From: an uncultured Candidatus Saccharibacteria bacterium
GTDB taxonomy: Bacteria; Patescibacteriota; Minisyncoccia; Phycocordibacterales; UBA1006
Assembly: GCA_964350165.1 (NCBI GenBank)
Contig: CAYGJA010000002.1
Coordinates: forward strand, 1 to 62,702
Reading direction: 5' to 3'
Length of the DNA stretch: 62,702 nt
The position numbers and the translations under genes are program-made. This document shows, one piece after another, positions 15,100 to 32,491 of this stretch; the stretch's first letter is position 1; each line of letters starts with the position of its first letter. The notes under the pieces are model-generated. The model was not told the DNA's origin, made no database searches, and saw only the letters and a program-made list of their open reading frames with translations.

Positions 15100-15116
15100 A
15101 GAAAATCCCCCTTCCC

Positions 15117-16766
15117 CTATTCTAAACGACCGTCAATACCGTCTATTTCGAGGCTCCAAGGTCTGCCTGTGTTTTTGTCTATAAAGTAGAGATAGTTTCC
15201 TTCAAAAGGATCGTATTGTAGGCTTGTGACATCCAAATTTTGATTGTTTTCTCTGATTGGATCGTAGAGTCGAAACGACTGAGCGTCAACCGTATTGGTG
15301 TACCAGAATTGATCACTGTATGTACTCTTACCCTGAAACCATTGATCTGGTTCCCCAACGCCGAGGCCATTTATTGGAGCGGCGCAGAATACTTGCGAGC
15401 TATCAGTGCTCCAGGTACATTTGTCTGCCAACGTAGAGAAAGGTAGAGAAGTTTCTTTTTTGCTCTGTATGTTGTAAAGACGGGTTCGAGTCTGCCTGTT
15501 GCCTGTATTCGCACTATAGAGAATGTGTGTGCCGTCAGGACTCACAAGAACCAGTAGACCCAGCTTGTCTCCCAAAATCTTGTCGAACCTCCCTGTTTGG
15601 GTGTCTAGAATATAAGCATAGCCAGCTACTTCGTTTGACGGTTTTGTTTGGAGGATTACCAGATCGTTGTTTATCCAATGGCCAATCCATTCACCAAATT
15701 CTGTTGAGAGGATGGTTTTGTTTGTTTGAAAAACGGTGTGATAAGATTCTATGTGATAAGGTTCTACTGGTGTTTTTTTTCGAATGGTCAAAAGCTCAGG
15801 GCCATCGGTGTTCAAGAGCGCAGTGTCTATGTTGGCCGAAATAAAATCTCCGCTCATTAGAGAGGACCTGGTTGCGATTTCCCTATTTTTTGCTTCTTCA
15901 CAAATATTTTTAAGTTCTTGTAAGTTGAGGCTGGTGATTGTACTTGTACTACTTAAAGCGTCTGCTGTACTAGTGGAATCTTGCAATAAGTCCATGTTCT
16001 CTATAAAAGTAGTCATGGCCAGGCCGAGGCTTTCGTCAAAAACATCTCCGGGTTCAATGGTGTATCCATATAAACCAGCTAGCGCATTTTTAGTGCCGGC
16101 TATCCCGGGATGAGTGTCGCCGAATGAAAAACTTCGGTCTACAGGTATTTCACAGGTTAGCTGGTTGTTTGTTTCCGGCACCTCCCCTACAAAGGTTTCT
16201 ATGAGGCTAGATCTTCGATCGTACCTTCTGGCAACAAGAATGTCTCCATTTTGATTAAAAAAAGATTCTCCAATATCGGGTATTTGTGTAGAAGACACTT
16301 GTTCTTCTGTGACGCTTGTTCCTTGTCGGATATCATAAATATGGCCACTAGTTCTTTCGTTGATGCGTATTTTTGGTGCTCGCAATACAGCTAAGGTATC
16401 AATTGGAATCTCTCCTCTAGCTTCGTTGTATGTGACAATACTGTTTTGGGTGGGATAAAAAATATCAGTAACAATGGGGACAAAATTTGAAGTGTCCCTG
16501 TTTGATATTAAGCGGAGTCTGTTTCTAAATAATGGTTGAAATTCGTCAGGTCTTAGCGGGCCGCCACTTTGGTTACCTGGCTCCGTTGGTGTTGGCTCCG
16601 GCTCTCTTTGTGAAGGGTTCCCAAAAGGAAAAAGATTGTCTGGACTAATATTTAGTTCATCGCTAAGAAAATCTCTAAGAAAAAGAAACCAGGATAAGAC
16701 TATGGCAATAAGTATTATTATAAGAATAATGACAATCTTTTTTTTCTTTTTGTTTTTATTTTCCAT
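15117..16766 (-). CDS. Membrane-anchored beta-propeller-like protein with a putative peptidoglycan-binding insert
   Basis: N-terminal basic stretch plus TM; VSPDG and WSTDS propeller-type repeats; FSFGDTHPGI...GDVFDESLGLAMTTF resembles PG_binding_1. Confidence 0.5.
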   Translation of the reverse strand: MENKNKKKKKIVIILIIILIAIVLSWFLFLRDFLSDELNISPDNLFPFGNPSQREPEPTPTEPGNQSGGPLRPDEFQPLFRNRLRLISNRDTSNFVPIVTDIFYPTQNSIVTYNEARGEIPIDTLAVLRAPKIRINERTSGHIYDIRQGTSVTEEQVSSTQIPDIGESFFNQNGDILVARRYDRRSSLIETFVGEVPETNNQLTCEIPVDRSFSFGDTHPGIAGTKNALAGLYGYTIEPGDVFDESLGLAMTTFIENMDLLQDSTSTADALSSTSTITSLNLQELKNICEEAKNREIATRSSLMSGDFISANIDTALLNTDGPELLTIRKKTPVEPYHIESYHTVFQTNKTILSTEFGEWIGHWINNDLVILQTKPSNEVAGYAYILDTQTGRFDKILGDKLGLLVLVSPDGTHILYSANTGNRQTRTRLYNIQSKKETSLPFSTLADKCTWSTDSSQVFCAAPINGLGVGEPDQWFQGKSTYSDQFWYTNTVDAQSFRLYDPIRENNQNLDVTSLQYDPFEGNYLYFIDKNTGRPWSLEIDGIDGRLE

Positions 16767-16783
16767 AGAATAACTTGTTTGGT

Positions 16784-18988
16784 TTAGAGCTCTCCTTTGC
16801 CATCGCCTCCTTCGTTTTGATATTTACTAAAGTGCATGGCGTCTTTGGATGAATTCCATTCCCCACCCCATCCCCAACCTTCTGCTTTCCAGATATTCAC
16901 AAACCAGGCGGGCATGTCTGTCTTGAGTGTGGTTTCCTCAAAAGGGTTTGTTGACCAGTTAATATCAATAGCAACACCAAATGCATGTTTTGATATTTTT
17001 GGTGGTGTGTGTTGTGTTCCATCTGGTTTTTTGATCATTCGACAGCAGTATCCGCCTACCTGTGTAATATCGTATGACTGTCCAGCCGCCCGAAGAGCGG
17101 CGTTGATTCTGTTGATGCTTGGGGTTAGACTTTTGTGCACCTTAGTGGCACCACCGTTGCCAATAGTGACAATATCAACGGCACTTGGATCACATGCTGG
17201 TACCGAGTAGCTTTGTCCGGTGTTTTTATCAGTAAGTTGTATGTCTGGTACGTTCTGCTGTGCCCATCTAATAAAGGCGGGGTCGGTGCAACTGTTACCG
17301 TCGTTAGGAATATCTTCAGGGGATATTCCATTAAGAACAATACCCTCATCTCGTAGTTCGTACTCGAGACTCACCTGTTCTATGTTGGGGTTAATTCGAA
17401 GAAGGTCTGGGTTGATGGTGTTTAAGATAACAAAGACTCCTAGGGCTATTACTAGACCCAAAAGAGACTGAATGATTCTTTCTTTTGCATTTGATTTTTG
17501 TCCAATGACATCAGTGGTCATGTACTGAACCCCTGCAATGATTATCATAATAACTGCCAAAAGACCCACTAGGCCAATTAGAAAGGTCACCATTCTGTTT
17601 ACCCAGAAACCAATAGAAAACTGACCGGTAATTCTGTTCTCCCCCGCTTGAGAATCGGGGACGCCAATCGCCTCTAGGCCTGGAAGTGGCGCAAGAAGTT
17701 CGTAACAGTCTGGTTTTAATCTGCCGTAATCGGTTGGATCGTTTTGATTAACTGGAGGGATATAGCAAGGCGAGTTTTTGATGGAAGTTATATAGCCAGA
17801 CAAAAAAGGGTTATCTGCTATTTGGATAGGCGAAACCTTGGTGCATTCTTCGTCCAAACACTCAAAGCCTTGAGGCTTACCCTGCTCTCCCCATTCAGTG
17901 TCACATTCATCATCACAGAAATATACTATGTGACCACCTGTTTCTTGGGTGGCAGTAAAGAGTGGTGAACCCAATGTTAATCCAAATTTTTCTGGATCGG
18001 TAACTGGCCTGTTCTGGCTAAACCAATTAGCATCAGCCTGATCATTGCTAAGGAAATTTATTCTACACTGACGAATACCATTTCCTACCGCTGGCCCACA
18101 GCCTTCATCACCAAGAGTGTAAGCTGATTCATAAACAAAGACGTTAGAACTATTTCTTACAAACTCGCTTCTACCTGGGATTATTTTCAATCTAAAACGA
18201 TAAGGCAAAGGGGCGGTTCCAAACAATGGTTCGTATGTATTCTGGTACCAACCATAACCAATTTGCCCAACAGATTTGTCGCAATCTTTAAAAATAGCGC
18301 GCACTTTTACAACGGGCTGGTCGTCATCTGAGTAAAAACCTGATGACTGCATGCCTGGCGTTAAAGGGGTCTCTGCGCCGGTTTCTTTGTTTACGTTGAA
18401 TAACTGTAGATTCTTTGTCCTACAAACAACAAAATCTTCATTTTTTTCCCAAATTTGACCCCCTACTACGTTCCAGTCTGCGGTACTAATTACTTCTCCT
18501 GGTGTTAATTTGAATTTAATTTCGTCGGTGTCGTCGTCGGCTTGCAAGTTCCCGTCCGCATCAAATATCTTTGCAATACCTTCGTATTTGCAACTTACTA
18601 CGGAGGTGGGGTTAGAAGCACATCCTTTGTTGGTTATTTGAAAATTTGTTTTTAGAGTTCCATAACTATAAGGACTTACATAGTCTCTTTGAAACACTAG
18701 TTCTCCACTATTTATTTCAAAAACTTGAAACTGCATGGTGATTCCCTCGCAGTCTCCTTCAAAATGGGCGAACATCTGAACCTCGGGGAGATGGTTCGAA
18801 TTGTAGAACTGACTAGGGTGAATTGTTTCTCTATCAAAATTAACATTATAGGTCAGGGAGTCGTTACCAAAGGCGCAAGGGTCGTTTTGAGCTTGAGCCG
18901 ATCCTATAAAAGAGAAAAAAAACAAAAAAAATAGTACCAGAAAACCAAGGCTGGTGGCGTAAGATGGTTTTTTTTGTGCAAAAATCAT
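16784..18988 (-). CDS. Patescibacterial T4SS pilin (VirB2/TrbC-like) fused to an M15 peptidoglycan peptidase
   Basis: Pilin motif AVIMIIIAGVQYMT...AKERI...GLVIAL...ILNTINPDLL; C-terminal SKHAFGVAIDIN and WGGEW...DAMHF. Confidence 0.8.
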   Translation of the reverse strand: MIFAQKKPSYATSLGFLVLFFLFFFSFIGSAQAQNDPCAFGNDSLTYNVNFDRETIHPSQFYNSNHLPEVQMFAHFEGDCEGITMQFQVFEINSGELVFQRDYVSPYSYGTLKTNFQITNKGCASNPTSVVSCKYEGIAKIFDADGNLQADDDTDEIKFKLTPGEVISTADWNVVGGQIWEKNEDFVVCRTKNLQLFNVNKETGAETPLTPGMQSSGFYSDDDQPVVKVRAIFKDCDKSVGQIGYGWYQNTYEPLFGTAPLPYRFRLKIIPGRSEFVRNSSNVFVYESAYTLGDEGCGPAVGNGIRQCRINFLSNDQADANWFSQNRPVTDPEKFGLTLGSPLFTATQETGGHIVYFCDDECDTEWGEQGKPQGFECLDEECTKVSPIQIADNPFLSGYITSIKNSPCYIPPVNQNDPTDYGRLKPDCYELLAPLPGLEAIGVPDSQAGENRITGQFSIGFWVNRMVTFLIGLVGLLAVIMIIIAGVQYMTTDVIGQKSNAKERIIQSLLGLVIALGVFVILNTINPDLLRINPNIEQVSLEYELRDEGIVLNGISPEDIPNDGNSCTDPAFIRWAQQNVPDIQLTDKNTGQSYSVPACDPSAVDIVTIGNGGATKVHKSLTPSINRINAALRAAGQSYDITQVGGYCCRMIKKPDGTQHTPPKISKHAFGVAIDINWSTNPFEETTLKTDMPAWFVNIWKAEGWGWGGEWNSSKDAMHFSKYQNEGGDGKGEL

Positions 18989-18992
18989 ATCG

Positions 18993-20000
18993 TTATTGTA
19001 TCACGCGAGCTGTGGCTACTGGTGATATTTGAAAAGGTTTAGACCGATTAGAAACAGCTACGCCGATTTCGGCAACTTGCTGTCCTGTGAATTCTACTGG
19101 AAGCTCATTTGGTATTGGTGAAGATGTTTTTCCGATAGTTTTCGCATTTACGATCCAATCAAAGTTAAGAAGGCCTAAGAGTTCTCTTTTTGCAGAAAAA
19201 AAGTAGGGCTCAGCTCGTAGAACCAGGTCCTGATTGTTTGTTGCTGGCGTTAGGGTGTTGGCATTTCTAAGACCGACACCTTGTTTATACAAAACAACTT
19301 CAGGATCAACTATGTTGATGGCCACACTTGCTTCGGCTGTGGTGAGGCCGTCCCTATGAACCACTTTGAGGTCTATAATTTCTTCTCTAGTCAAGAAGTC
19401 GTTTCTAATTACCAATGGGTTTTCCCCAAAACCAGACGAATCGGGTAGATTAGTGTTGTTCTGTGTCCAATTGAATACAATTTTTTTTTCTTGAGATTGG
19501 GCGCCTTCGTTTTTTAGATTTGGAAGTCCTACTATTTTAATAAAGCTTTCGGGGGTTGGCAGGGCTTTGCCTCGATAAAAAGGAGGGGTATAGGTGTCTG
19601 CTTGCCAAAGAATATCGAGATCGGCTGGAGCAATTTGAATCCATTTTCTAAGATTGGTACCACTGTCTACTTGGATATAGGCCTCAATTGAGGTTAATTC
19701 CCCCTGAGAACCGGTTGTTGTTTGTATCTCTGTTTCTCCTGTGCCACTAAGGACTATCTCCCCATTAACAAACCAGGTAATACGCAATCTATTAACATTA
19801 ATAATATAGCTTTCTAGAGAAACCGTTATTTTTTCGTTTGTTCCCGGAGTTTTGGGGTCAATGTTCATGGAGATGTCTCGAGCTTCAATGGTCGAGCCAA
19901 AATTCTGCGCGTATGCCGAATGCAAAAAAAGAAAAGAAAACAGCGAACCAAACACTGTCATGGCTACACATAGAATGATTTTTTTTCTAGCCCTTATCAT
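18993..20000 (-). CDS. Secreted Ig-like hypothetical protein of the T4SS cluster
   Basis: Signal peptide; beta-rich with ITWFVNG and LWQADTYTPPFYRGKALP; TATAAT 6 nt before ATG. Confidence 0.6.
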   Translation of the reverse strand: MIRARKKIILCVAMTVFGSLFSFLFLHSAYAQNFGSTIEARDISMNIDPKTPGTNEKITVSLESYIINVNRLRITWFVNGEIVLSGTGETEIQTTTGSQGELTSIEAYIQVDSGTNLRKWIQIAPADLDILWQADTYTPPFYRGKALPTPESFIKIVGLPNLKNEGAQSQEKKIVFNWTQNNTNLPDSSGFGENPLVIRNDFLTREEIIDLKVVHRDGLTTAEASVAINIVDPEVVLYKQGVGLRNANTLTPATNNQDLVLRAEPYFFSAKRELLGLLNFDWIVNAKTIGKTSSPIPNELPVEFTGQQVAEIGVAVSNRSKPFQISPVATARVIQ

Positions 20001-20023
20001 GACGTTATTATAAGCCGACCTTG

Positions 20024-21871
20024 TTAGTTTACAAAATCATTTTTTGTATCCACATTTTCTCGATATTCGTCTTTTGATTTACTGATGGACATGAGCTGGG
20101 CTGGGTCAGAGGTAATAATCTGATCCTCGGTGTAGCTCGCTATTATTTTAATGGCTGCGTGCTTGAGGCCGGCAAAGAAAATCCCCTCTCCCCTGTTGGA
20201 TTCCAGTAAAAGATATTTTTCTTCCTCAGTCAGGTTAAAGACTTTTTGTAGATCGTCTATTGTGGATGGTGACTGCTTGAGAAGAATCTGAATAGAAGAG
20301 TTTGTGATAATAGGCACGCCATATTTTGACTTCATAAAGTCTCCCACGTCTTGGGTGATGGTGGCTAGCCCGAGATAGTATTTACGACCACGCTTGGCTA
20401 GGCTAAACAGGAACGAGGCAGTGTCGTCGTTTTTCATCATCCACCAAGCTTCATCTACCACCAGAAGGCGTTTGCGCAAGTCTTTGCGAACCGCAGACCA
20501 GATATAGTTGGTGATAATGTACATCGCCGCTGGTTTTAGTTCGTCCTCCATGTCGCGAATAGAAAAAACAACTAGTTTTTTATTGATACTGACGTTGCTG
20601 GGTGAGTTGATGAAACCAGCCCAAGAACCCTTGGTGTATTTCTCCAATCGAGCCGAAAGCGATTCACTGCCCTCCATGCTGTTGAGTACCATTTCAAAGT
20701 CAGACATCAGTGGCGGCTCTAGATTGCTAAAGTCTTTGTTGGGGGTGATGTCTTTAAGGGCGTAAGTTTCGGTGATGGCTCTATCTACCACAGAGTCTTC
20801 TTCTGGCGAAAGTCCACCAAGCAAGATGCGGAAAAGACCAACTAGATGAATAACATGAGAACGAAGGACGTCTTCCGGAGACTCGTCTGGCAAGGGCTGA
20901 GGTAGGTCGAAGGGATTGATGTGGTGTTCTGAAGACAGCGAAATATTAAAGTACCTCCCCCCTACTGCTTCGGCAAGGAATTCGTATTCTCTTTCTGGGT
21001 CGATGATAATAACTTCGGTGTCGAACATCATCGTGCGCAGAATTTCTAGTTTGGTGGTGTATGATTTTCCGGCGCCAGATTTTGCGAAAATAACCGAGTT
21101 GTAGTTTTCGAGAGAAAAGCGATCAAATAAAATCAAGCCATTGTTGTGGCGATTGATGCCGTACAAAATCCCCTGTTCCGAAGAAAGATCTGATGAAATA
21201 AAAGGAAAAAAAGACGACAAAGGACCAGAGTTCATTTTTATATTTACCCCTAATTCATCCCGGGCAATAGGGTTTACTGAATGAAATCCTTGGACCTGTT
21301 GATACAAGGCGGGTTTTACGTATACCAACCTTGATTCAAAAATTGTTTTGATTTCATTTTCTAGGGCGCTCAATTCTTTTTCATTGTTGGCGTAGATTGT
21401 TACATAAAGACCAACATCAAACATTTTTTCTTGAGCTTGTTGTAGCTGATTGCGAAGCTGTTCTAGGTCACGCACGGCGGTATCCAACATTGGATCACGC
21501 ACCATACCTTTTTCTTGTCGAAGATTAATCTGACTCTGGACCTCGGCTACTTTTTTTTGAAACTTACGAAGAATTTTTTCGGTTGGAATGGGGTTTATTT
21601 GAATAGAAAGGTCAAATTTTTGGTCAAGATTAATTACTGGCCCAAGCCAACCAGAAACCAGAAAGCGCGGGTAAGAAATTATAAAGTAGCTACGAGCCAA
21701 TTGGTCACCGATGGTTAGTGCCTTGGTGTCTATTTTTATAGCAGAAGGGGCTAGAATATCCTGGAGCTCTAGTTTTGCTGTTTCGTATACTTCTTGGGGT
21801 AGAACGGGCATTATTTGCGCACTCTCTGCAGAAGTATCCTTTTTTTTGAATATATTAGATAGAAAACTCAT
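20024..21871 (-). CDS. VirB4/TraE-like conjugal-transfer ATPase
   Basis: YGINRHN, IFAKSGAGKS Walker A, IIDPEREY, VVDEAW Walker B, RGRKY, TITQDV. Confidence 0.88.
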   Translation of the reverse strand: MSFLSNIFKKKDTSAESAQIMPVLPQEVYETAKLELQDILAPSAIKIDTKALTIGDQLARSYFIISYPRFLVSGWLGPVINLDQKFDLSIQINPIPTEKILRKFQKKVAEVQSQINLRQEKGMVRDPMLDTAVRDLEQLRNQLQQAQEKMFDVGLYVTIYANNEKELSALENEIKTIFESRLVYVKPALYQQVQGFHSVNPIARDELGVNIKMNSGPLSSFFPFISSDLSSEQGILYGINRHNNGLILFDRFSLENYNSVIFAKSGAGKSYTTKLEILRTMMFDTEVIIIDPEREYEFLAEAVGGRYFNISLSSEHHINPFDLPQPLPDESPEDVLRSHVIHLVGLFRILLGGLSPEEDSVVDRAITETYALKDITPNKDFSNLEPPLMSDFEMVLNSMEGSESLSARLEKYTKGSWAGFINSPSNVSINKKLVVFSIRDMEDELKPAAMYIITNYIWSAVRKDLRKRLLVVDEAWWMMKNDDTASFLFSLAKRGRKYYLGLATITQDVGDFMKSKYGVPIITNSSIQILLKQSPSTIDDLQKVFNLTEEEKYLLLESNRGEGIFFAGLKHAAIKIIASYTEDQIITSDPAQLMSISKSKDEYRENVDTKNDFVN

Positions 21872-21873
21872 AT

Positions 21874-22509
21874 TTATTTTACTTTTTCTTCAAAACGAGC
21901 CCCTCCTCCCTGTTGTTCTCCGGGGTTGTAGATCTGATAATAAACCTCGATTAATTCCTGGGTTCCTAATTGGACACCTCGTAATCCAACGCTCGCCAGT
22001 CCCTGTTGAACAATTTCCGCACGCTGTTCTAGTTGTGTTCTGGCTTCTTCAAAACGAAAAGTGTCAGTTTGGCTTGTTCCTCCCAGTTTGCTTATAAACC
22101 CAAAAACCCCCCCTTCTTTTTTGGTGATTGCAGCATCATAAGGAATAACAACAAAAAAACTCTTGCGCATGATGTTTGTTTGATCGGTGAACCAGCGAAT
22201 GAATTCGATATATTCTTTTATTTGTATTTGAAGTAATTCTTCAGGGATTTCTTTAGACCTTTTTTCTAGAGTAGCAAGATAAGGGGCGATGTTTAAATTT
22301 CTTGATTTTATAAAGAATTGAATGGGAAACTCCAAAGAATTAAGTAGCCTTTGAAATTGATTTATTAGGGCGTTCTGTTCTTCATCGGATTTCAGCTCAA
22401 AATTCACTGAAGATATCATGATAATGCTTCTTAATCCGCCGTCTTTGAGAACAACGACTCCATCGCGAACCTCATCTATCGGAATAAAGTTTTGTGTGGG
22501 AGCGCTCAT
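21874..22509 (-). CDS. VirB4 N-terminal-like (TraC-type) T4SS accessory protein
   Basis: TQNFIPIDEVRDGVVVLKDG, SVNFELKS.EEQ, FFVVIPY; between PrgI and VirB4. Confidence 0.65.
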   Translation of the reverse strand: MSAPTQNFIPIDEVRDGVVVLKDGGLRSIIMISSVNFELKSDEEQNALINQFQRLLNSLEFPIQFFIKSRNLNIAPYLATLEKRSKEIPEELLQIQIKEYIEFIRWFTDQTNIMRKSFFVVIPYDAAITKKEGGVFGFISKLGGTSQTDTFRFEEARTQLEQRAEIVQQGLASVGLRGVQLGTQELIEVYYQIYNPGEQQGGGARFEEKVK

Positions 22510-22511
22510 AT

Positions 22512-22925
22512 TTATTTTTTGCTATCGTCCAGAACATCAAGACTCCAGGATAATTCTCGTAAATTACTTTGTGGCTGTTGTTTGTGTTTTGGGGCTAATT
22601 CAATCGAGGGAGCCAATACTTCTTTTTTGATATTTTTGTTATTGTAATCTTTTTGCCATAAAAACATTTTTGCCGAAAAAAGATGCTGAACATACGCCTG
22701 CACTATTTTGATAAAGGATTGCCCATTAATTTTATGAAAAGCCAATGCCAGAGTGAGTGCAGCCGTAGGGAGGGCGAGGATAAAGGCTATGACCTGAGGG
22801 GTAAGTTGAATATAAAGATAGATAAGCCCCCCTCCCCCGGCAAGGTAGACGAATTGTTTTATGGTGAGAGGTCCAAAGAGTTTGTCTTCTACGTCAATAA
22901 ATTGAGGTACCTGAAACTGTTGCAT
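22512..22925 (-). CDS. PrgI family (VirB3-like) protein
   Basis: QFQVPQFIDVEDKLFGPLTIKQF followed by two TM helices. Confidence 0.85.
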   Translation of the reverse strand: MQQFQVPQFIDVEDKLFGPLTIKQFVYLAGGGGLIYLYIQLTPQVIAFILALPTAALTLALAFHKINGQSFIKIVQAYVQHLFSAKMFLWQKDYNNKNIKKEVLAPSIELAPKHKQQPQSNLRELSWSLDVLDDSKK

Positions 22926-22943
22926 ACAGACAGTATAGCATCG

Positions 22944-23465
22944 CTACACTGTCTCTTGGTAGGGGTCTGTTGGTTGTTTCTCTTCGGGTACAAATCCCGG
23001 CTTGTTTGGAATTCCTTTTAATACACTCTCTAGGTCCGTTTCCTCCGGCTTCTCTCCCCAGTCCACTTGATTGTTTGGCATGATGGTAATGTTTGAAGCG
23101 GCGAAGGGGTCGGTTTTTTGTTGCGTGTCTGTTTTTTGAACAGAAAGACCTTCGATTGGTTGTCTGCTTTTTACATACTCGAGCACTGGAACAAATACTT
23201 CTTTGTTTAACAATTTAATAACTTCATTATTTTTTTCTGGAAAAAGATTTTTCACTTCTTCGTTTAATTCTCGAGCAGAAGCAAGACCAACGAGAACAAA
23301 ATCAATAACCGTGCGGAGTTCGTCTAACTTGTCTAAGTGAAAATGAAAAGTTTCCTTGAGGTTAATAATCGCTTGATCAATATTGATTTGGTCCATAGCA
23401 AGGATTACTCGTTGGTCAACGTTTGCGTAGGCATCGTTTATTTCTTTGGCGGTGAATGATCTCAT
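22944..23465 (-). CDS. Hypothetical protein of the T4SS cluster
   Basis: 173-aa ORF tightly packed between PrgI and the VirB6-like gene; ends DPYQETV. Confidence 0.65.
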   Translation of the reverse strand: MRSFTAKEINDAYANVDQRVILAMDQINIDQAIINLKETFHFHLDKLDELRTVIDFVLVGLASARELNEEVKNLFPEKNNEVIKLLNKEVFVPVLEYVKSRQPIEGLSVQKTDTQQKTDPFAASNITIMPNNQVDWGEKPEETDLESVLKGIPNKPGFVPEEKQPTDPYQETV

Positions 23466-23470
23466 GACTA

Positions 23471-26299
23471 TTAACTCCTGGCAGCGTTAATTCTGGTAGT
23501 TAGGTTTGCCTGTTGGTCTAGATTTTGTGAAAGATTTGTTTGTTCGCTAGACAAAAGACTTCGTTCTCGGTTAAGTCGGTTGAGCCTGCGTCTTTGATCG
23601 GCGTCGAGAGTACCGGTTGCGCTATTTGCTACAGCTTCAGAAATAGCTCTGATTTCAACGTCAATAGCGCTGATTTTTCCACTTACAGTAGCTGTTAACT
23701 GTCTCATTCCCGCACGAACAGCATCACGCTCGGCTGGCTGGTTCAGCAATCGTTTAGCTTTTTTGAGCTGATCGGGCTGTACTGAATCTAAGGCAGCACG
23801 AAGCTGTGAAGGGGTCATATTTATCAATTGATCCTCGGTGAATGTTTGTTGTAGATGATAGTATCTCCCCAAGGTATCGTTTAGATCTTCTAGTTGAGTG
23901 CTCAGGGTTGATATGAGGTTTTGATTTCGGCTGTCTTTTGCTAGCTCGGCTTGGGTTCTGCGTGCGTATTCTTCACTGGCACTTGCTCTTGACCCCCTAG
24001 CAAAATCGTCTGTACGATTAATGGCATCTCTTTGTTCAGCAGCTAGCATGCTTCTGGTTTCAGAGTTTATCTCGGCAGAAGTCTGCATTCTTCGATAAGT
24101 AGATGCTTTGGGAAGATTATTTTGTTGTCGCTCTCTTTCCTCGTTTTCCCAATTAGCTGCAACGTCGGTTCTGTCGGTAACTGCGATGGATCCAGTATCA
24201 CTGGCTATTCCATCTGCATCAACATTCCTGAGCACCTGACCATTGTTATAGCTCGCATCAAAATCTCGTCGAAGTTCTGTTGCTAGATATGCTCGGTCTG
24301 CGTCTGTGGTGGTGGCATTATTCCAATAAGTAGACTGTTCGAGCTGTTCCTGAAGGTGTTCAAAGCGTACTTCTCGAAGACGGTCGGCGACACGTTCACC
24401 AATGATGTCTCCTGTTTGTGTAGGGTCAATTGCACCAGTATCATTATCATATCCTTTGATCTCTTTTCCTTGTTCGTAATTTTCATCAAATTCTCGACGC
24501 ATGTTCTGTAATTCCAAGAACTGGTCTTCTTGGTTGAGGTTTTTGTAATAACTTGTCGCTGTAAAGCTTGCTTCGGCAGTGGCTTTAGCTGACTCGTATT
24601 GTCTTGATGCATTAGGATCAAGTGCTCGGTTGTGTTCCTTGGCTTCTTCATCTCTTCTCCCAGCCTCGTTACCGGTCAGTAGAAGTCTTTGTTCTCGTCG
24701 TTCCAGTTGTTCTTTTCTTTTCTTTTTCCTGCCTTCGTAGCGTTCGTCATAGCTTTGGCCACCCATAAAACGAGTTCCTCCTATGGATGGCGCCGCTGTT
24801 CCGGTTAAAGCTCCCCCTGTTCGTACTGCCGACCCAAAAGACTGAGCGATCTTGTTGTCTCTAAGATCGAAATTAGATCTCGATACTCGCTCACTGGCAC
24901 CAAGGGTTCTTCTGGCTATGTTTTTACCGCCGAAGTTAAACTCCCTACCCCCTACCTTCATTTTGAGTCCGTTTCTGGCAATATTTTTGAGTTCTCCACT
25001 TTTCGAAAGAGCTCCAGCTGCTCCTCCTATTACCGTGGTTCCTGCCAAGGCAGCCCCACCAACAGCTATGCCAGCTGTAGTGGTAATTGATTTTGTCACC
25101 ACACTGGCTACCACTTCTCCAACTTTGCCCGACATTTTTTTTGCTTGAGACCTCCCCAGCACGAGGAACCCAATAACCAAAGCAAAAGGAATAGCTACGC
25201 TCATAAAAATTTGTGACAATGATGAACCGCCGGTTACGTTTGGGTTTATAGGTATTCCAATCGCCAGGAATTTGATGGTCAAATACATGAAGAATATGAA
25301 AAGCGGCGCCATAAAAGAATAGTTTATGAGAGCACCAATCCAGCTTTGGAATCCAATATAAGGTATTGCGTTTGCTTTGGGTAAGGCCAGACTCACAAAA
25401 GCAAAAGGAGAAAAAATCATAGAATAGTAAAGACCTACTATTCTGGCCAAGAAATAAACCGAAACCGAAATAAAAATATAAATAAGAAAAATATTGAAAA
25501 TAATAGAACCAACAATGGTAAGGATAAAGATATTCCCATTATCTTCTTTGTTTGAAAAATTAATACCACCGCTTTGATTTGGAGCAAGCAGTGCTTGCGG
25601 GTTGGCGAGACTGGTAAGCATTAATCCAACACTTTTGATTCCATCTGCACCAGTTAGATCTTCGTTGGCGTTTCCCCTTCCGACAAGTTCTATTTGGTTG
25701 TAGAGTGTTCGGGCCAAAATGTTTCCGGCATCAACAATTATTCTCGAAAAGAAAAGGCTAAAGTTAATAAGCAACGCCATTACTATAAGATAAATCAAGA
25801 GTTTTTTGCCATCTGCGCCACCAATACTTGCTTTAAGTACAAAAGAAAAAGCTATATAAATGAGGCCAAAAATAAAAAGTATATTGGTAATATCTCTAAC
25901 GATTTTCCAACCCTCGAGAATAAAACTCGTAGGAAGCTGATTGGCGTCTTTAATAGGTACTCCTCGATAGGTTCCGGCGTCTATTGAAAAGAATATAAAA
26001 AAATCAAGAAAACCAGCCGCCCTACCCGCCAACCAGTAGGTCGGTGTCCATACGACAAAGTAAAGAAATTGACCACCACAGCCAGTTACGGAAAAACCCT
26101 CAGCCAAGTTAAAACAAGAAGGCAGTGCATAAGTTGAAGCCAATGTTTCTTCGTTTTGTGGGTTGTAAGATTGAGCCAGAGCAGACGAAGAGGTGATCGC
26201 TATTTTTTCTTGAGACAAAGAGATAGAAAAAGGACCCAAGACAAAAGCCGCCAGAACAAGAGATAAGATGATTTTGGTGCTAATTTTTCTCAGGTGCAT
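23471..26299 (-). CDS. VirB6/TrbL-like polytopic membrane protein with a long charged C-terminus
   Basis: GWKIVRDITN, ALLINFSLFFSRIIVD, many TM helices, G/A-rich segment, then a coiled-coil-like tail. Confidence 0.65.
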   Translation of the reverse strand: MHLRKISTKIILSLVLAAFVLGPFSISLSQEKIAITSSSALAQSYNPQNEETLASTYALPSCFNLAEGFSVTGCGGQFLYFVVWTPTYWLAGRAAGFLDFFIFFSIDAGTYRGVPIKDANQLPTSFILEGWKIVRDITNILFIFGLIYIAFSFVLKASIGGADGKKLLIYLIVMALLINFSLFFSRIIVDAGNILARTLYNQIELVGRGNANEDLTGADGIKSVGLMLTSLANPQALLAPNQSGGINFSNKEDNGNIFILTIVGSIIFNIFLIYIFISVSVYFLARIVGLYYSMIFSPFAFVSLALPKANAIPYIGFQSWIGALINYSFMAPLFIFFMYLTIKFLAIGIPINPNVTGGSSLSQIFMSVAIPFALVIGFLVLGRSQAKKMSGKVGEVVASVVTKSITTTAGIAVGGAALAGTTVIGGAAGALSKSGELKNIARNGLKMKVGGREFNFGGKNIARRTLGASERVSRSNFDLRDNKIAQSFGSAVRTGGALTGTAAPSIGGTRFMGGQSYDERYEGRKKKRKEQLERREQRLLLTGNEAGRRDEEAKEHNRALDPNASRQYESAKATAEASFTATSYYKNLNQEDQFLELQNMRREFDENYEQGKEIKGYDNDTGAIDPTQTGDIIGERVADRLREVRFEHLQEQLEQSTYWNNATTTDADRAYLATELRRDFDASYNNGQVLRNVDADGIASDTGSIAVTDRTDVAANWENEERERQQNNLPKASTYRRMQTSAEINSETRSMLAAEQRDAINRTDDFARGSRASASEEYARRTQAELAKDSRNQNLISTLSTQLEDLNDTLGRYYHLQQTFTEDQLINMTPSQLRAALDSVQPDQLKKAKRLLNQPAERDAVRAGMRQLTATVSGKISAIDVEIRAISEAVANSATGTLDADQRRRLNRLNRERSLLSSEQTNLSQNLDQQANLTTRINAARS

Positions 26300-26376
26300 A
26301 TTTATTACAGTGAGCCCTGTATTGATACAATAAGTATACCCTACCCTTCCACCTGTCTAAATACAAGGGTGTTTGC

Positions 26377-26419
26377 AACACAAAAGCCCTTCGACACACA
26401 GTCGAGGGGCTTTTGTGTT
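26377..26419. terminator. Long inverted repeat, terminator
   Basis: AACACAAAAGCCCTTCGAC-acaca-GTCGAGGGGCTTTTGTGTT, 19-bp stem with one wobble. Confidence 0.75.
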
Positions 26420-26430
26420 ATTTGTTTTTA

Positions 26431-29400
26431 CTACAAGGTCGATTCCTGTTTTGGATAGTCCAGATAGGTCGAAAGATCTGACAATGTCCAATCCGCACAT
26501 CGCTGTACATCCGTCCATAGATTTCCGGCATTTCCGATGTCGTTTGTTTCTGGTGTTCCGTCGTTTCTAAGGTCTCCGGTCCACCACCTGTCTACTCCAC
26601 CACCTCCATTGTTGTCAATATCAAACAAAGAGTTGAAGTTTTTGAGAGGCTGAAACAAGATACTCCGGTGCCTACAATAGAGACGTCGTTCGGTGTGTTC
26701 TCTGTATACATCAACTGAAAACATTTTTACAGATCGTTTTTCTGGTTCTCCGTAGATATAAGGAGGATCATCAAAACTTACCTCTGCAGTATAGGGATAG
26801 GTGTAGTTGTTTCTGCGGGCTAGGTTTGGACTAACATTTGCATTTGTGTTTTCATTTGCTCCTGGATTGGTCAGTACATAGGGGTGGAATATGGCATAAG
26901 GATCATAATCTACCGCCAATCCTTCGAGAACCGCTTCGTCCGGATAAGCCGGAGAACTGTGTACCAACGTCCCACCAAAATGGTTACAGTTAATTGTTGA
27001 TCCCAAGACGTCTCTGCGGAAACTCGGATAGCTGTTGTTACACCCTTGAGGATTACGGAACAGGATGTTGTTTTCCGAAACACTCTGGCTTTGAGGGAAA
27101 ATTCCTTCTGGTTGATCTAAATACCAGTCAAATTGACCGATTCCATATCTTCCCAAGCTATAAGCATTGCTAAGTTTGCTATCACTGTTGCTGTTGGTGT
27201 TGTCGATCCTTCTAATATCTCGATTGGTTTGGAAAACCGCATCGGTATTAAGTTTGGAAATACAAAAGTGATTCTGATAATCAATTAGCAGGGTTCTGAT
27301 CTGAGCGTTGGTGTAGCCGTTTTGTTTTAGTTTTTCAAGAATATCAGTATCCAATGAACACTGGAAATCAGGCGTGGCAAACTCTACGATATTTGGTCGG
27401 GCAAAGAACTGTACAATACGAAGGGCCTCGTTGTTGTTGGAAAAGCTTCCCACGGTATCCCATAGATAACCAGTCACAGAGTCGCCACCAAATGAGGAAA
27501 TATTGGTTGCAGTTTGTAAGATATCTCGGGAAGGAGCTCCGTCTGTGTTTGCTGGTTCTGGTCTCCCTTCTCTTTCTATGGCTCTCATTACATAGGGAAC
27601 CCTAGAATCAATTCTAATATTGTCTTCAAGGATATCTTGCAGAGCACTCCAGCCAGGATTATTGCTGGTGGTGAGTGAGTTAATATTAGGAGTTACCTGG
27701 ATTTTTCCACTAGGAGTGTCGAAATCAAAAGGAAGATTGTTGATGGTCAAATGGTTTCCTGGCATGAGGTTTTCTGGAATCAATTTATCCAATTTCCACA
27801 ATGCAACGTAACAGCGATCAAGATTGTCGTAGAGATCTGCAAATAATTGTTCTGCTCGCTGTAGTTCTGCTTCGGCATTTCTTACACCAGCATCAGAACC
27901 AATATCTTCTTCTATGCTGAGATAGAGATTGATGATACGGCTAAGTTTTAGCTTGAAGGTATTATCTGCGCTGGGAACGCTAGCAATAAATGCCTGGAGT
28001 TTGCGATTGAAATCAGTAAGCTCACTGAGGTGTTGTTCGTATGTTTGGACATGAAGGACACGATTTGCTGTAGAAGTGTTTCCATCAGAGTCTGTTACTG
28101 AATACGTAATCCGATATTGGTAACCTTTTTCCATCTCTGGTTGACCCGGGCTACCTGGAATTTGTTCCGAAATAAGTGCTCCGTTGCCGGCGTATTGTGC
28201 TGGCTGAGCAACTACTTCTGGAACCGCTGGAGCAGTATAGCTTTCGCTAATATTAATAAAGACACCTGGTTGATTTGGAATAGTCGTTAAAGTGGCGGGG
28301 GTATTGAGAGCTGGGTTCCCAGGGACGATTCTGGTTACGGTTATGTTGTCGACAAGTTGACTATTGAGGTCTGCTTGGAGGGTGGCGTTTTGGCTGTCCT
28401 CTGCATCAACCACGGCTATGTTTTGCATGATGTTAAATGCATAGTCGTCTTCTTGATGAGGAACGGTGATGTTTGTTCCAGACACAATAATCCTTGGCTT
28501 ACTAAAGGCGTTCGATGTTGATCCGGACTCAGTACTTCCAAAATCTTTGAGTTCGTCTTTGGTTAGTCTGTCTTCTGAGATTTCTAGATTACCAAGATCA
28601 TTGACACCTGAACCAAAGACAAGCTCGGGATCATCTTCCCAGGTTGGTGGTTGCTTGGTTAGAATACTTGCTTCTGGTCCCAGGTCTTCTATTAGCTCTC
28701 GTACTCGTATCATGGTTGATACTGCGTTTTGTTTTTGACTTGCTTCTTCTAGGATCTGAGAACCTTGACCTACTTCTTTGATGGCAGCATCTACAATGGT
28801 GGAGAATTCGAATTGAAGCGCAAAGGGGCTGTCGGGCATGGCTTCGTTAACAAGGCTTACTTGTCGGTCGAGTTCTTCTTCTAGGTCTTTCATGAACTGT
28901 CTTTGCGCTCTACGCTTATCGGTATTGCTATTTATGTTTTGATTAACTTCTTCAAACAGTGCTCTGGTGTCGTTTCTAAAATTACTACGCAAACGTTGTT
29001 CCCAGCCAAAATCTGGACCCAGTACGCATTCTTGGTCGAGCACGAGTAAGGGTGCTCCCGCGGCCTGGAACACTTCCCCTGCTTGACGAAGAGCGTTAGC
29101 TTGACGAGAAGTGGCGTTTATTTGTTTATTAATAAGTGAAAAATCAATATCTCGATTGCCTAGTAATTGCCAGGCTTGGTCATCACCAGTAGTGAGATTG
29201 TCGGCGACTTTTCCGTAAAGATAAGAAAAGGGACCCAGTTGTGTGACTTGAGCAACCACCTCTTGGGAACGATTACGAATTTCTCCTGCAGCTGCTTGAA
29301 TACCCCCCCTGATCACAGCCGAAGCCGCTTCGGCCAAAAGCTCTCCGCCTAATTTTTGCCAAGTGTCTACTTCACCAGTGACTGCAAAAGATTTTGTAAT

Positions 29401-30681
29401 AGCACCAGCCAGTGTCTCTCCTACGGCTGCACTTGGGGAATTTGTTGTAAAGGCTTTACAAATTGACTGCGCTGTTCCATCTCTAAAAAGTTGCTGCCCT
29501 TCTCTTTCGCAGGTTTTTTCTGGGAGTATTCCTCCAGAGGTTGCTTCTGTCAAAGCCGCTTTCAGACGTCTATCAGCGGATAATGCAACCCTGTTTGCTA
29601 CGGTAAAAGCAGTTCCAATAGCATTGTTTCCTGGTAGCAATAAAGCATCCCAGCCACCATAAGGGTCAAGTGGGTCAAATCCTATCGTGGCGTCTTTTCC
29701 ATAATTTAACCACTGTTCTCCGAGGATGCTCTCGAGGGTTGTTTCGACTGTTCCGGCTAGTGTTGATCCATACTCACGAACGGTATTTTGGGCAAGCCTG
29801 GTAGCAAAAGCATTGACATCTTTGCCGGGAAGTGTTTCTGCTCGTACGGGTTTTCCGGTACCATCATTGGCGTTAAGTACGGACTGGCCAATAGGTCGAG
29901 CGTTCTCTGGATTACCTGTGTCCCAGCCGGTTGTTTGGAAAGTCAAAGCCTCGGAGTTGATAAGTGTAAAAGTAAATTCCCATTGTGTGTCTGACATGGT
30001 GCAACGTTCCTGGGATATACCAGGTTGGCAGATGGTTGTGGGCCTGTTTGGGTTCGCAGTACTTGCGCACGATCCGTCTGGCTCATAGCCGTCACAGTAA
30101 TCAGTTATTTCTTTGAAGTAGACGCCAGTAACAAAATCATCAAAGGCGGTGGCGTCTGTTTGGGGATTGCGATTATAAGCACTGGCAAGATAGTTCTGTA
30201 TCCAGACTGGTGTTTCGTATGCGGTTCCAAAAAACTCTCTTTGGCCTTTCGCTCCAGCATCATAGGAGCTTGCAGTAATCGCTTTTGTTAGCTCAGAGAG
30301 ACCTTGACGCAAGGCAGCATTGGGGGCTTCTGCAATGAATTGATCAAAAGCATTCACAAACAGCTGGTTGCCTCCCTTGAAGCCACCAGCAATCCATTGA
30401 TAGGTGGCGTTGCTGAGTTTTTGGCCTGCAATCTGTGCTGCATTAATGGCAACAGCGTCTAGTACTTCTTTTACATAGCGCTCGTAGATACTGTTAGCTG
30501 TTCTGGTTGTGCTCTCTACTGATTCTTTTGCCCTGTTCCCTGTTTCTGCCAGATTTTGCGCATCGTCAAAATCGGGTCCTGCTGCTTGAGCAAAAACCAC
30601 AATGTTTCCTGGCCAAACAAAACCACTAGTCAAAAGAAGCGTGAGTGTAAGAAGGAATTTGAAAATTGTTTTTTTATTCAT
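26431..30681 (-). CDS. Large secreted hypothetical protein with a DUF5011-like Ig domain
   Basis: 1416 aa; signal peptide; AVVDAED...YRITYSVTDSDGNTSTANRVLHV. Confidence 0.65.
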   Translation of the reverse strand: MNKKTIFKFLLTLTLLLTSGFVWPGNIVVFAQAAGPDFDDAQNLAETGNRAKESVESTTRTANSIYERYVKEVLDAVAINAAQIAGQKLSNATYQWIAGGFKGGNQLFVNAFDQFIAEAPNAALRQGLSELTKAITASSYDAGAKGQREFFGTAYETPVWIQNYLASAYNRNPQTDATAFDDFVTGVYFKEITDYCDGYEPDGSCASTANPNRPTTICQPGISQERCTMSDTQWEFTFTLINSEALTFQTTGWDTGNPENARPIGQSVLNANDGTGKPVRAETLPGKDVNAFATRLAQNTVREYGSTLAGTVETTLESILGEQWLNYGKDATIGFDPLDPYGGWDALLLPGNNAIGTAFTVANRVALSADRRLKAALTEATSGGILPEKTCEREGQQLFRDGTAQSICKAFTTNSPSAAVGETLAGAITKSFAVTGEVDTWQKLGGELLAEAASAVIRGGIQAAAGEIRNRSQEVVAQVTQLGPFSYLYGKVADNLTTGDDQAWQLLGNRDIDFSLINKQINATSRQANALRQAGEVFQAAGAPLLVLDQECVLGPDFGWEQRLRSNFRNDTRALFEEVNQNINSNTDKRRAQRQFMKDLEEELDRQVSLVNEAMPDSPFALQFEFSTIVDAAIKEVGQGSQILEEASQKQNAVSTMIRVRELIEDLGPEASILTKQPPTWEDDPELVFGSGVNDLGNLEISEDRLTKDELKDFGSTESGSTSNAFSKPRIIVSGTNITVPHQEDDYAFNIMQNIAVVDAEDSQNATLQADLNSQLVDNITVTRIVPGNPALNTPATLTTIPNQPGVFINISESYTAPAVPEVVAQPAQYAGNGALISEQIPGSPGQPEMEKGYQYRITYSVTDSDGNTSTANRVLHVQTYEQHLSELTDFNRKLQAFIASVPSADNTFKLKLSRIINLYLSIEEDIGSDAGVRNAEAELQRAEQLFADLYDNLDRCYVALWKLDKLIPENLMPGNHLTINNLPFDFDTPSGKIQVTPNINSLTTSNNPGWSALQDILEDNIRIDSRVPYVMRAIEREGRPEPANTDGAPSRDILQTATNISSFGGDSVTGYLWDTVGSFSNNNEALRIVQFFARPNIVEFATPDFQCSLDTDILEKLKQNGYTNAQIRTLLIDYQNHFCISKLNTDAVFQTNRDIRRIDNTNSNSDSKLSNAYSLGRYGIGQFDWYLDQPEGIFPQSQSVSENNILFRNPQGCNNSYPSFRRDVLGSTINCNHFGGTLVHSSPAYPDEAVLEGLAVDYDPYAIFHPYVLTNPGANENTNANVSPNLARRNNYTYPYTAEVSFDDPPYIYGEPEKRSVKMFSVDVYREHTERRLYCRHRSILFQPLKNFNSLFDIDNNGGGGVDRWWTGDLRNDGTPETNDIGNAGNLWTDVQRCADWTLSDLSTYLDYPKQESTL

Positions 30682-30687
30682 AAAAGA

Positions 30688-31656
30688 TTAGAGAGCTGTT
30701 TCTATGTTGGTAATATACCACTGCAATTCATTGGCGTAGGTAACAATATTGGCCTGATATCGAAGCAGGGCGGCATAGCCCGGCAAAGCATCTTCTTCGT
30801 AGTTTCGAATACCCGCCAGGTCTACTGCCACGCGAACAAGGGCATTCGTAAGAAGCAGGTGTTGAGATACGTAACGGCTAGGTATCTCTATACTTTCTAG
30901 TTTTCCTATCATTTCAATTACTTCGCTTAGGCTTACGTCAATGCCTTTTTTAAGGAAGGCGGCATCTCGATTGGTTGTGTAGTTTTCAAAAATAAGCAAA
31001 GGGTCTGTCTCAATAAAATTTACAGAAGTTACTTCAAGAACAAGCTCAATATAAGATTGCTCTCGATTGGGATCATATTCGTCTAATATAATAAAGTCAG
31101 TTTCGGATCGTAGTGGGTACGAATGGTTGTAGATTAAACCTTCCACATAACCATTTACTATTTCTTGTTCTAGTTCAGGGGTCAGTTCTCCTAATTTTTC
31201 AAGAATCTGAGTTTTGAGATAGACGTCCTGTGCCACCTGGTCAGTTATGGTCTGGCCACTTTCGAGGCTTTGGTTTTGTTGTAGTTGTGCTAGTTCTGCG
31301 TCACTTGCTTCGGGATACTGGGCACGCAGTCTTTGTAGTTCAAGAATCCCAAGTGTGTTTTCTGTTACCGCAAGAACAGAATCATCACCTACCCCGTCGC
31401 TGTTGGTGTCAAAGGCGAGAGGATTGGTTCCGAGCAAGAGTTCTCGCCAGTCTGGTATACCGTCTCCATCACTATCTGTTTCACTGATTTCATCTGCAGT
31501 ACGGTTGTCGAGGATTTTTGTTGAAGGAGCGGTGTTCTTTTTTTGCATAACCAAGCCCGCCAACCCCATGAGTAAAAGGAAAAGAGCTAGGACAATAATT
31601 AATAATTCTTTTTTACCAAAAGACTTGCCGGACTTTATGTTGTTAGGTTTTGCCAT
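30688..31656 (-). CDS. Membrane-anchored protein with Ca-binding DxDxDG (bacterial TSP3-like) repeats
   Basis: TM helix, then DSDGDGIPDWRE.LLGTNP...DTNSDGVGD. Confidence 0.7.
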   Translation of the reverse strand: MAKPNNIKSGKSFGKKELLIIVLALFLLLMGLAGLVMQKKNTAPSTKILDNRTADEISETDSDGDGIPDWRELLLGTNPLAFDTNSDGVGDDSVLAVTENTLGILELQRLRAQYPEASDAELAQLQQNQSLESGQTITDQVAQDVYLKTQILEKLGELTPELEQEIVNGYVEGLIYNHSYPLRSETDFIILDEYDPNREQSYIELVLEVTSVNFIETDPLLIFENYTTNRDAAFLKKGIDVSLSEVIEMIGKLESIEIPSRYVSQHLLLTNALVRVAVDLAGIRNYEEDALPGYAALLRYQANIVTYANELQWYITNIETAL

Positions 31657-31672: not shown

Positions 31673-32482
31673 CTATTTTTTGAAGAACTGTGGATACTCC
31701 TGTGGATTTTTTATTGTTTTCCAGAGAGCGAGTATTTGTTTTGGGGTTAAATCTTCTGCGCGTACCGATAGAGTGTGTCCTGCTTGGGTTAATGTTTCTT
31801 GGATTTTTTCTAGTGGAAAGAAAGGTTTGAGGTTGGTGGTGAGCATTTTTCGTTTACCAGCAAAGACTTGTCGCAAAAAGACAAAAAAATCCTCGCGGTC
31901 TTTCTGGGTATGAAAAGGTTGTAAAATATGGGAAAAATGAACCACTGCCGAAGAAACCTTGGGTGGCGGGCTAAAAGAGCCTGGTTTTACGGTGCAGATT
32001 ATTTTGGGCTGACAATAGATAGATACGGCTGTGCCTAGGATTGAGTTTTTTCCGTCGCGCATCACAATACGTTCGGCTACTTCTTTTTGCATCAAAAGCA
32101 CCATTTGGATAGGTGGCTGTTCTGAATCAAGGATATGTTTGATAATGGCCCCCGTAATATAAAAAGGAATATTGCCAATAACCTTGTAATTGTTTGTTTT
32201 TGGGGTCCATTCGAGGATGTCTTGGTGTTGGAGAGATAGCTTGTTTGTTTGTATCGCTGACTGAAGTTCTGTTTGCAGGACTTCTATCATGCGTTGATCC
32301 ATTTCGATGGCTTGGATGTGCTTAGCTTTGGTTTGGACTAGTTCCCGCGTCAAAAACCCTTTACCTGGACCGATTTCGACCACTGTGTCCCCCGTCTGAA
32401 TATCCAGCGCGTCAATCATTTTGGTAACTACGGTGGTGTTGGTCAAAAAATTCTGCCCCAGGCTTTTTTTGGCGCGTATCAT
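31673..32482 (-). CDS. rsmA: 16S rRNA adenine dimethyltransferase RsmA/KsgA
   Basis: KKSLGQNFL, VEIGPGKG, GNIPFYIT, QKEVAERI, FSPPPKVSS. Confidence 0.96.
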   Translation of the reverse strand: MIRAKKSLGQNFLTNTTVVTKMIDALDIQTGDTVVEIGPGKGFLTRELVQTKAKHIQAIEMDQRMIEVLQTELQSAIQTNKLSLQHQDILEWTPKTNNYKVIGNIPFYITGAIIKHILDSEQPPIQMVLLMQKEVAERIVMRDGKNSILGTAVSIYCQPKIICTVKPGSFSPPPKVSSAVVHFSHILQPFHTQKDREDFFVFLRQVFAGKRKMLTTNLKPFFPLEKIQETLTQAGHTLSVRAEDLTPKQILALWKTIKNPQEYPQFFKK

Positions 32483-32491
32483 GTTGGTATT

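Follow-up and report, generated by a model that had tools for sequence, protein, structure and literature searches.

A type IV secretion locus beside oriC in a patescibacterial genome: conserved core, exported partners, and a pilin hairpin fused to a wall enzyme

The 62,702-nt stretch of DNA analyzed here (the window; positions 1–62702 of contig CAYGJA010000002.1, referred to as C2) belongs to an 816,893-bp, 15-contig genome of an uncultured patescibacterium with a completeness of 99.67%. On its minus strand, at 15117–31656, it carries a block of ten genes that encode the core of a type IV secretion system (T4SS) together with a set of exported proteins. We consider it highly probable that this block is a copy of the Patescibacteria-clade T4SS, derived from MPF-FATA machinery, stably established next to oriC in the chromosome, and maintained vertically as a core cell-envelope machine. 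An earlier, sequence-only reading of the window had described a ten-gene minus-strand block wedged between housekeeping genes, and this description holds: all ten open reading frames (ORFs) are found where that reading placed them, all are intact, and they are bounded by jag on one side and by rsmA-pcrA on the other. The gaps between the ORFs of the block are 2–23 nt, with a single exception of 131 nt between the gene for a 1416-aa protein and the VirB6-like gene. The locus as such is already known from papers published between 2023 and 2025, including its dnaA/rnpA/ksgA neighborhood.

The predicted translocon core comprises four features, the last of which is separated from the other three by one small gene:

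20024–21871, minus strand: VirB4 ATPase of the monoderm MPF-FATA type, 615 aa (NF045971, PF19044)
21874–22509, minus strand: TrsD-like protein, 211 aa, the VirB4 N-terminal domain as a gene of its own (NF045975, NF041427)
22512–22925, minus strand: PrgI/VirB3-like small membrane protein, 137 aa (PF12666)
23471–26299, minus strand: extended VirB6-like polytopic membrane protein, 942 aa (transmembrane scan; TrbL/VirB6 matches of orthologues)

The VirB4 protein is assigned by profile score to the MPF-FATA lineage, as it reaches 366.6 bits (E 2.5e-109) against NF045971 (conju_CD1110, an MPF-FATA equivalog), for which the cut-off is 325. The earlier grouping of this ATPase with VirB4 is thereby borne out. 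Its Walker A (GAGKS266) and Walker B (DEAW473) motifs are both intact. The TrsD-like protein matches NF045975 with an E value of 2.2e-12 and the TrsD profile NF041427 with an E value of 4e-6, and it covers positions 1–100 of the NF045971 model. For comparison we used 80 related loci (L022–L101) obtained from a scan of GTDB species genomes, each with a reach of ±10 kb from virB4; all are from Paceibacterota/Parcubacteria (Kaiser-, Taylor-, Zambryski-, and Nomurabacteria). The TrsD-like gene is present in 75 of the 80 loci at a median identity of 52%, and PrgI, which scores 38.6 bits against PF12666 (E 1.6e-9; cut-off 27), is present in 74. The possibility that the split VirB4 reflects a frameshift or read-through was ruled out, since the virB4 ATG comes 2 nt after the TAA stop and in another frame, and since the split recurs in the same 75 loci.

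The 942-aa protein has a signal peptide, five transmembrane (TM) helices located between residues 133 and 382, and an Arg-rich, coiled-coil-like tail of ∼560 aa, which is probably cytoplasmic. Profile searches with this tail against the PDB returned coiled-coil-type matches only. An orthologue is found in 62 of the 80 related loci, and PF04610 (TrbL/VirB6) is matched by 3 of 24 orthologues, the best with an E value of 1.1e-6.

The position of the block is as conserved as its core. The genes on either side are as follows:

10202–15099: dnaN (minus), dnaA (minus), rnpA (plus), yidC (plus), and jag (plus), the origin region
31673–34414, minus strand: rsmA/ksgA and pcrA/uvrD, co-directional with the T4SS genes

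The GC skew switches sign at ∼12 kb, beside dnaA, and the block lies 2–4 kb from dnaA/oriC. The rsmA/ksgA and pcrA/uvrD genes are spaced by 9–16 nt and are the same neighbors in the relatives. Approximately 45 of the related loci are of sufficient length to be assessed, and in these the genes run pcrA-rsmA-(TSP3)-slot B-VirB6-like-slot D-PrgI-TrsD-VirB4-Ig-like-pilin protein-propeller, where TSP3 stands for thrombospondin type-3 and Ig for immunoglobulin; beyond the propeller gene lie the convergent jag-yidC-rnpA and then dnaA-dnaN. VirB4 was found in 58 of 61 relatives, nearly always once, across 25 families of the same order and at 65–74% identity. In the same 48 genomes, mean pairwise identity is 76% for VirB4, compared to 58% for DnaA and 44% for DnaN. 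Distances between the VirB4 proteins correlate with DnaA distances (Mantel rho 0.74, p 0.001) at least as well as the DnaN distances do. Because the neighborhood is conserved and VirB4, near-universal and single-copy, exceeds DnaA in conservation and co-varies with it, these genome comparisons mark the locus as a vertically inherited core machine under strong purifying selection and not an integrated conjugative element (ICE).

The alternative that the block is an ICE, or the decaying remnant of one that has no relaxase, coupling protein, or integrase, is close to refuted. What speaks for it is that the core parts all descend from conjugation machinery and that the window contains a tyrosine recombinase:

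47540–48481, plus strand: tyrosine recombinase, 313 aa, with Phage_integrase and SAM_1 domains, the only one in the genome

This gene corrects the sequence-only reading, which had reported neither integrase nor attachment (att) repeats in the window; only the second part of that statement stands. The recombinase is, however, unlinked to the T4SS block, from which it is separated by 16 kb, and most probably represents the one Xer recombinase of the genome. The search for att sites yielded flanking direct repeats of 14–24 nt that are imperfect and at chance level, and no tRNA gene lies near the block. In addition to the insertion site and gene order shared across an order and the behavior of VirB4 relative to DnaA, the intact ORFs and ATPase motifs argue against a mobile or decaying element, as does the native composition of the block, with a GC content of 0.427 against 0.444 and a tetranucleotide distance that falls at the 90th percentile for randomly drawn chunks of the genome. 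The earlier proposal of a domesticated apparatus rather than one for plasmid conjugation is therefore well supported by the fixed order-wide position, the single-copy VirB4, the native composition, and the lack of matches to relaxase families described below.

Six Pfam relaxase families (Relaxase, PF03432; Mob_Pre, PF01076; TrwC, PF08751; Rep_trans, PF02486; MobA_MobL, PF03389; TraI_2, PF07514) have no match genome-wide while the controls match; MOBC and MOBB were not searched. There is also no VirD4 in the window. The earlier claim that both relaxase and coupling protein are missing thus stands for these six families across the genome, and for VirD4 it applies to the window and fails for the organism as a whole, because three VirD4/TraG-family ATPases are encoded elsewhere in the genome:

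C4:17749–19098: VirD4/TraG-like ATPase, 449 aa (Pfam)
C4:15323–17713: VirD4/TraG-like ATPase, 796 aa, with a treble-clef zinc finger and a disordered tail of ∼350 aa (Pfam)
C2:124167–126959: VirD4/TraG-like ATPase, 930 aa (Pfam)

The two genes on contig C4 are adjacent. All three of these type IV coupling protein (T4CP)-like ATPases pass the cut-off for TrwB_AAD_bind (PF10412), and two of the three pass that for TraG-D_C (PF12696). An N-terminal TM anchor is absent from all three, and none is encoded in the T4SS locus. A 319-aa membrane protein encoded upstream of the 449-aa ATPase was considered as its missing TM domain and ruled out, as it is an MscS channel. All 61 relatives have homologues of the T4CP-like proteins, as a rule two in each genome, and two of the three ATPases are conserved throughout this set. 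These soluble ATPases may have a role in DNA transfer or in effector recruitment.

Their presence gives weight to a variant in which the same machine carries DNA to or from the host, served by a soluble VirD4/TraG-like ATPase and by a relaxase that is either unrecognized or dispensed with, in the manner of the archaeal Ced system and the gonococcal/ComB-type T4SSs. VirB4 does match CedB and CedD, though weakly, and it is established that such organisms are unable to make nucleotides (restated in PMC12857230). We nevertheless regard DNA as an unlikely cargo: the T4CP-like proteins have no membrane anchor and are unlinked to the locus, the six relaxase families returned nothing, and in Southlakia epibionticum the t4cp homologue is non-essential whereas the T4SS genes are essential (PMC12102498).

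The pilin-related component of the block is a fusion protein, which we divide as follows:

16784–18988, minus strand: fusion protein, 734 aa, with a signal peptide (T4SS_pilin, PF18895; Peptidase_M15_4, PF13539)
17609–18892, minus strand: Cys-rich ectodomain of the 734-aa protein
17417–17605, minus strand: VirB2-like pilin hairpin with two TM helices in the same protein (PF18895)
16826–17002, minus strand: M15 D-Ala-D-Ala-type metallopeptidase domain of the same protein (PF13539)

The Zn ligands of the M15 domain (H668, D675, and H719) are present. Comparison of the 734-aa protein with 75 related ORFs shows conservation limited to the hairpin (residues ∼405–545), and both the ectodomain and the M15 tail went unmatched in the 80 related loci. 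In public proteins the VirB2-like hairpin is joined to M15_4, VanY, NlpC/P60, YkuD, M23, SLT, or extensin-like domains, depending on the lineage. Going by these domain architectures, the peptidoglycan enzyme carried on the constant membrane hairpin is swappable. Such fusions of pilin hairpin and wall hydrolase are not discussed in the 2025 survey (PMC12102498). Further hairpins are encoded on contig C3, where a tandem array of five T4SS_pilin-hairpin genes (14565–18806, minus strand) specifies proteins of 97–706 aa, the largest of which (706 aa) has InlB-type B-repeats ahead of the hairpin.

The remaining genes of the block encode accessory proteins, listed here in the order of transcription with the domains of the largest one given separately:

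30688–31656, minus strand: TSP3 protein, 322 aa, with one N-terminal TM helix and Ca-binding thrombospondin type-3 repeats (PF18884)
26431–30681, minus strand: secreted "slot B" subunit, 1416 aa, with a signal peptide (slot-B profile hidden Markov model, HMM)
28723–30681, minus strand: slot B N-domain of the 1416-aa protein (HMM of the slot-B proteins of relatives)
26434–28722, minus strand: C-terminal extension of the 1416-aa protein, 763 aa, with an Ig-like repeat (HMMER search)
22944–23465, minus strand: "slot D" protein, 173 aa, with no TM helix (positional family)
18993–20000, minus strand: secreted Ig-like protein, 335 aa, with approximately three Ig-like β-sandwich repeats (family-wide weak matches)
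15117–16766, minus strand: membrane-anchored β-propeller, 549 aa, with an N-terminal TM helix (AlphaFold2, Foldseek)

The sequence-only reading had called the large accessory subunits uncharacterized. This remains an apt description, but the proteins are members of conserved positional families and not oddities of one genome. Each accessory family of the block is single-copy in the genome, and orthologues of the 942-aa, 549-aa, and 335-aa proteins and of the pilin hairpin occur in 54–74 of the 80 loci. Profile searches against the PDB with the accessory families returned noise only.

The gene for the 322-aa TSP3 protein opens the block next to rsmA, a position that it also holds in the relatives. 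The protein scores 25.2 bits against PF18884 (cut-off 25), its TM helix spans residues 18–36, and the D-rich repeat DTDxDGLxDWEExLWGTDPxNxDTDGDG is invariant across 25 orthologues; as a positional family it is weakly conserved, as is that of the 173-aa protein.

The 1416-aa protein had been labeled an Ig protein; its ORF is confirmed, while the Ig signal is sub-threshold (24.3 bits against PF16403, cut-off 27). An HMM built from the slot-B proteins of the relatives, which are 380–840 aa long, matches residues 1–653 with an E value of 2.8e-19. The slot B family is fast-evolving, and the AlphaFold2 model of the N-domain is poor (predicted local distance difference test score, pLDDT, 48.6). A tblastn search found no match to the 1416-aa protein in the 80 related loci and, together with a word-based search, suggested a genome-specific orphan, a notion that was overturned by the profile and full HMMER searches. 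For the 763-aa extension, only five long-form relatives were found among 1.84 billion representative proteins; the remaining matches cover an Ig-like repeat of ∼40 aa that is common in large surface proteins. In two further loci, L102 and L103, the long form of slot B is found in the same locus and gene order, and one of these two loci also encodes a 919-aa pilin-M15 protein.

The 173-aa slot D protein, for which no Pfam or PDB relative was found, contains a Pro-rich linker, has a DPYREP motif that is conserved at the C-terminal end, and clusters with 59 of 61 proteins at the slot D position. A relationship to the product of a nearby DUF5663 gene was ruled out (hhalign probability 0.3%). The 335-aa protein, present in 73 of the 80 loci, has a signal peptide or TM helix at residues 8–26 and repeated W-containing motifs in the alignment; weak Ig-like matches in its family are to BiPBP_C (7 of 22 members) and to Ig_3 (4 of 22). 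Finally, the 549-aa protein is encoded by the last gene of the block, which is convergent with jag. Its AlphaFold2 model (pLDDT 77.3, predicted template modeling score 0.70) retrieves TolB, WD40, and oligogalacturonate-lyase propellers in Foldseek. Of the earlier label for this protein, the propeller is thus upheld and peptidoglycan binding has nothing in its support. The model, which does not resemble NTF2, the fold of VirB8, predicts an extracellular propeller. The protein has an invariant Cys pair and occurs in 60 of the 80 loci.

With most of the block genes encoding exported surface proteins, an organelle for adhesion or pilus assembly only has to be considered, in which VirB4 would power the extraction and assembly of hairpin proteins only, without passage of any substrate through a channel; the hairpin proteins would in turn display enzymes and adhesins. 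The joining of the hairpin to large ectodomains and wall enzymes, both in the block and in the C3 array, is in keeping with this explanation, as is the fact that neither a VirB8 nor a linked T4CP was found. The retention of a VirB6-like channel subunit with a long tail in 62 of the 80 loci argues against it, and so does the universal retention of T4CP-like ATPases. We hold this explanation to be quite improbable.

A more specific role for the hairpin in Paceibacteria can be put forward tentatively, and we think it possible although on balance doubtful. Beyond serving to build a pilus, the VirB2-like hairpin may be a modular anchor for export and display, with swappable payloads that are assembled by the T4SS at host contact, and the payloads, together with the hypervariable slot B protein, which is present here in a rare long form of 1416 aa, may set host range. 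Payloads on the C-terminal side would be wall enzymes (M15, VanY, NlpC/P60, YkuD, M23, SLT), and those on the N-terminal side would be fast-evolving Cys-rich ectodomains. If this is true, the locus would amount to a cassette for host specificity with an invariant motor at its center.

To return to the block as a copy of the Patescibacteria-clade T4SS, several points weigh against this identification and the function that goes with it. The 942-aa protein itself has no Pfam match and no direct match to VirB6. No VirB8-like protein was recognized by PDB profile searches with the 335-aa, 549-aa, and slot D families. With three T4CP-like ATPases in the genome, DNA transfer is conceivable. The function of the block in the source organism is read from its genes, and what is proposed for it is extrapolated from Saccharimonadia to Paceibacteria.

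On the preferred reading, the parts may work together in the following way. By analogy with their homologues and with S. epibionticum, PrgI, TrsD, VirB4, and the VirB6-like protein would form an ATP-driven membrane translocon. The M15 domain, tethered through the pilin hairpin, would open the peptidoglycan locally, and the hairpin proteins, together with the five-gene pilin array on C3, would make up or nucleate a conduit resembling a pilus. Contact specific to the host would be the part of the fast-evolving exported proteins (slot B, that is, the 1416-aa protein, along with the Ig-like, propeller, and TSP3 proteins). The machine would then move protein or other cargo between epibiont and host, rather than a plasmid. 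Roles in attachment, wall breaching, and transfer of effectors or DNA would, by analogy, fit this list of parts, and such roles have already been proposed (PMC10633639, PMC12102498, PMC12857230).

The closest precedent is the survey of Quinonero-Coronel et al. (2025, Microb Genom 11:001409, PMC12102498), who found that the VirB4 proteins of Patescibacteria form a monophyletic clade beside MPF-FATA. In their survey, TrsD, PrgI, VirB6, and VirB2-like genes are located close to virB4, relaxases are all but absent, and most T4CP homologues lie far away from that gene; for Paceibacteria, the neighborhood reported consists of dnaA, dnaN, rnpA, ksgA, and rpmH. The block described here shares with that system the MPF-FATA-related VirB4, the adjacent TrsD, the PrgI/VirB3 and VirB2-like pilin genes, a putative VirB6-like gene, the lack of a relaxase, the distance of the T4CP homologues from virB4, and the dnaA, dnaN, rnpA, and ksgA (rsmA) neighborhood, and there is no difference in kind. 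The slot B, slot D, Ig-like, propeller, and TSP3 positional families called here are not described in that survey.

In the second precedent, Wang et al. (2023, Cell 186:4803, PMC10633639) found the T4SS genes of S. epibionticum to be essential for epibiotic growth, and the machine and its pilus have since been proposed as a conduit between epibiont and host (PMC12857230). The cluster of strain ML1 (SEML1_0006–0019) resembles the present one in being origin-proximal and of Gram-positive type, in having pilins and peptidoglycan hydrolases beside virB4, and in the absence of a recognizable relaxase. S. epibionticum belongs to another class, Saccharimonadia, and it is there that essentiality was shown, whereas the block of the source organism is known from its genes. 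The two also differ in their pilins, which form a six-gene array within the cluster in S. epibionticum; in the source genome a single enzyme fusion lies in the cluster and the array lies on C3.

MPF-FATA conjugation systems of Firmicutes (the C. difficile CTn-type CD1110 family, pCF10 Prg/Pcf, and pGO1 Trs) have homologous VirB4, PrgI, and TrsD proteins, a VirB6-like polytopic protein, and a membrane-tethered peptidoglycan hydrolase in the VirB1/PrgK role. Those systems are, however, mobile elements with a relaxase, an oriT, a membrane-anchored T4CP, a VirB8-like PrgL/TraM, and surface adhesins, and they have no VirB2-like pilins. The source block, in contrast, has a pilin hairpin and no relaxase, linked T4CP, or detectable VirB8. 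The 942-aa protein can also be compared with the extended VirB6 proteins (F TraG and Rickettsiales RvhB6; PMC12857230), which likewise have at least five TM helices and a large hydrophilic C-proximal domain, although its tail has no detectable sequence similarity to those of F TraG and RvhB6.

The setting of the locus allows some further observations. An intrinsic terminator by consensus, consisting of a 19-bp hairpin and a U-tract, is located at 26419–26377 on the minus strand, directly 3′ of the 1416-aa gene, and a promoter-like site by consensus (TTTAGA-17-TATACT) is located at 26361–26333 on the same strand, ahead of the VirB6-like gene. Because a strong terminator and a promoter-like site thus lie between these two genes, the consensus sites suggest that the T4SS block comprises two transcription units. 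The minus-strand run at 15117–46442, which includes the T4SS genes, is on the C>G strand to the right of the skew switch and is therefore transcribed head-on to the fork leaving oriC. The orientation of the T4SS genes relative to dnaA is the same in the related loci. Rearranged relatives were also observed: in L022–L024, which belong to the genus whose VirB4 is closest in identity, virB4 comes after the Ig-like, pilin, and propeller genes, and in genome G011 (locus L015) virB4-PrgI-TrsD is inverted relative to the Ig-like, pilin, and propeller genes.

Elsewhere in the window, just upstream of pcrA (34464–40091, minus strand), lie the DUF5663 gene and a gene for a 1765-aa protein that has no Pfam match; no counterpart of either was found in the 80 related loci, whose reach is only ±10 kb around virB4. 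The window also encodes a PilB-type T2SSE ATPase with an MshEN domain, the motor of a type IV pilus (2122–4620, plus strand), and a LysM-M23 peptidase (42256–43452, plus strand).

Few machines have been linked by experiment to the epibiotic lifestyle of this huge uncultivated lineage, and the Patescibacteria T4SS is among them. The copy in the source genome adds no new principle to this system, and the additions made here are minor: the positional families, a long form of slot B confined to a small clade, and a pilin hairpin that carries lineage-specific wall enzymes. Taken across the order, the view of the Paceibacteria machine that emerges is one of an invariant motor, five exported partners that are conserved yet evolve fast, two positions that are hypervariable, and a pilin hairpin with a variable enzyme, and this view points to subunits that may be relevant for host recognition and wall breaching.

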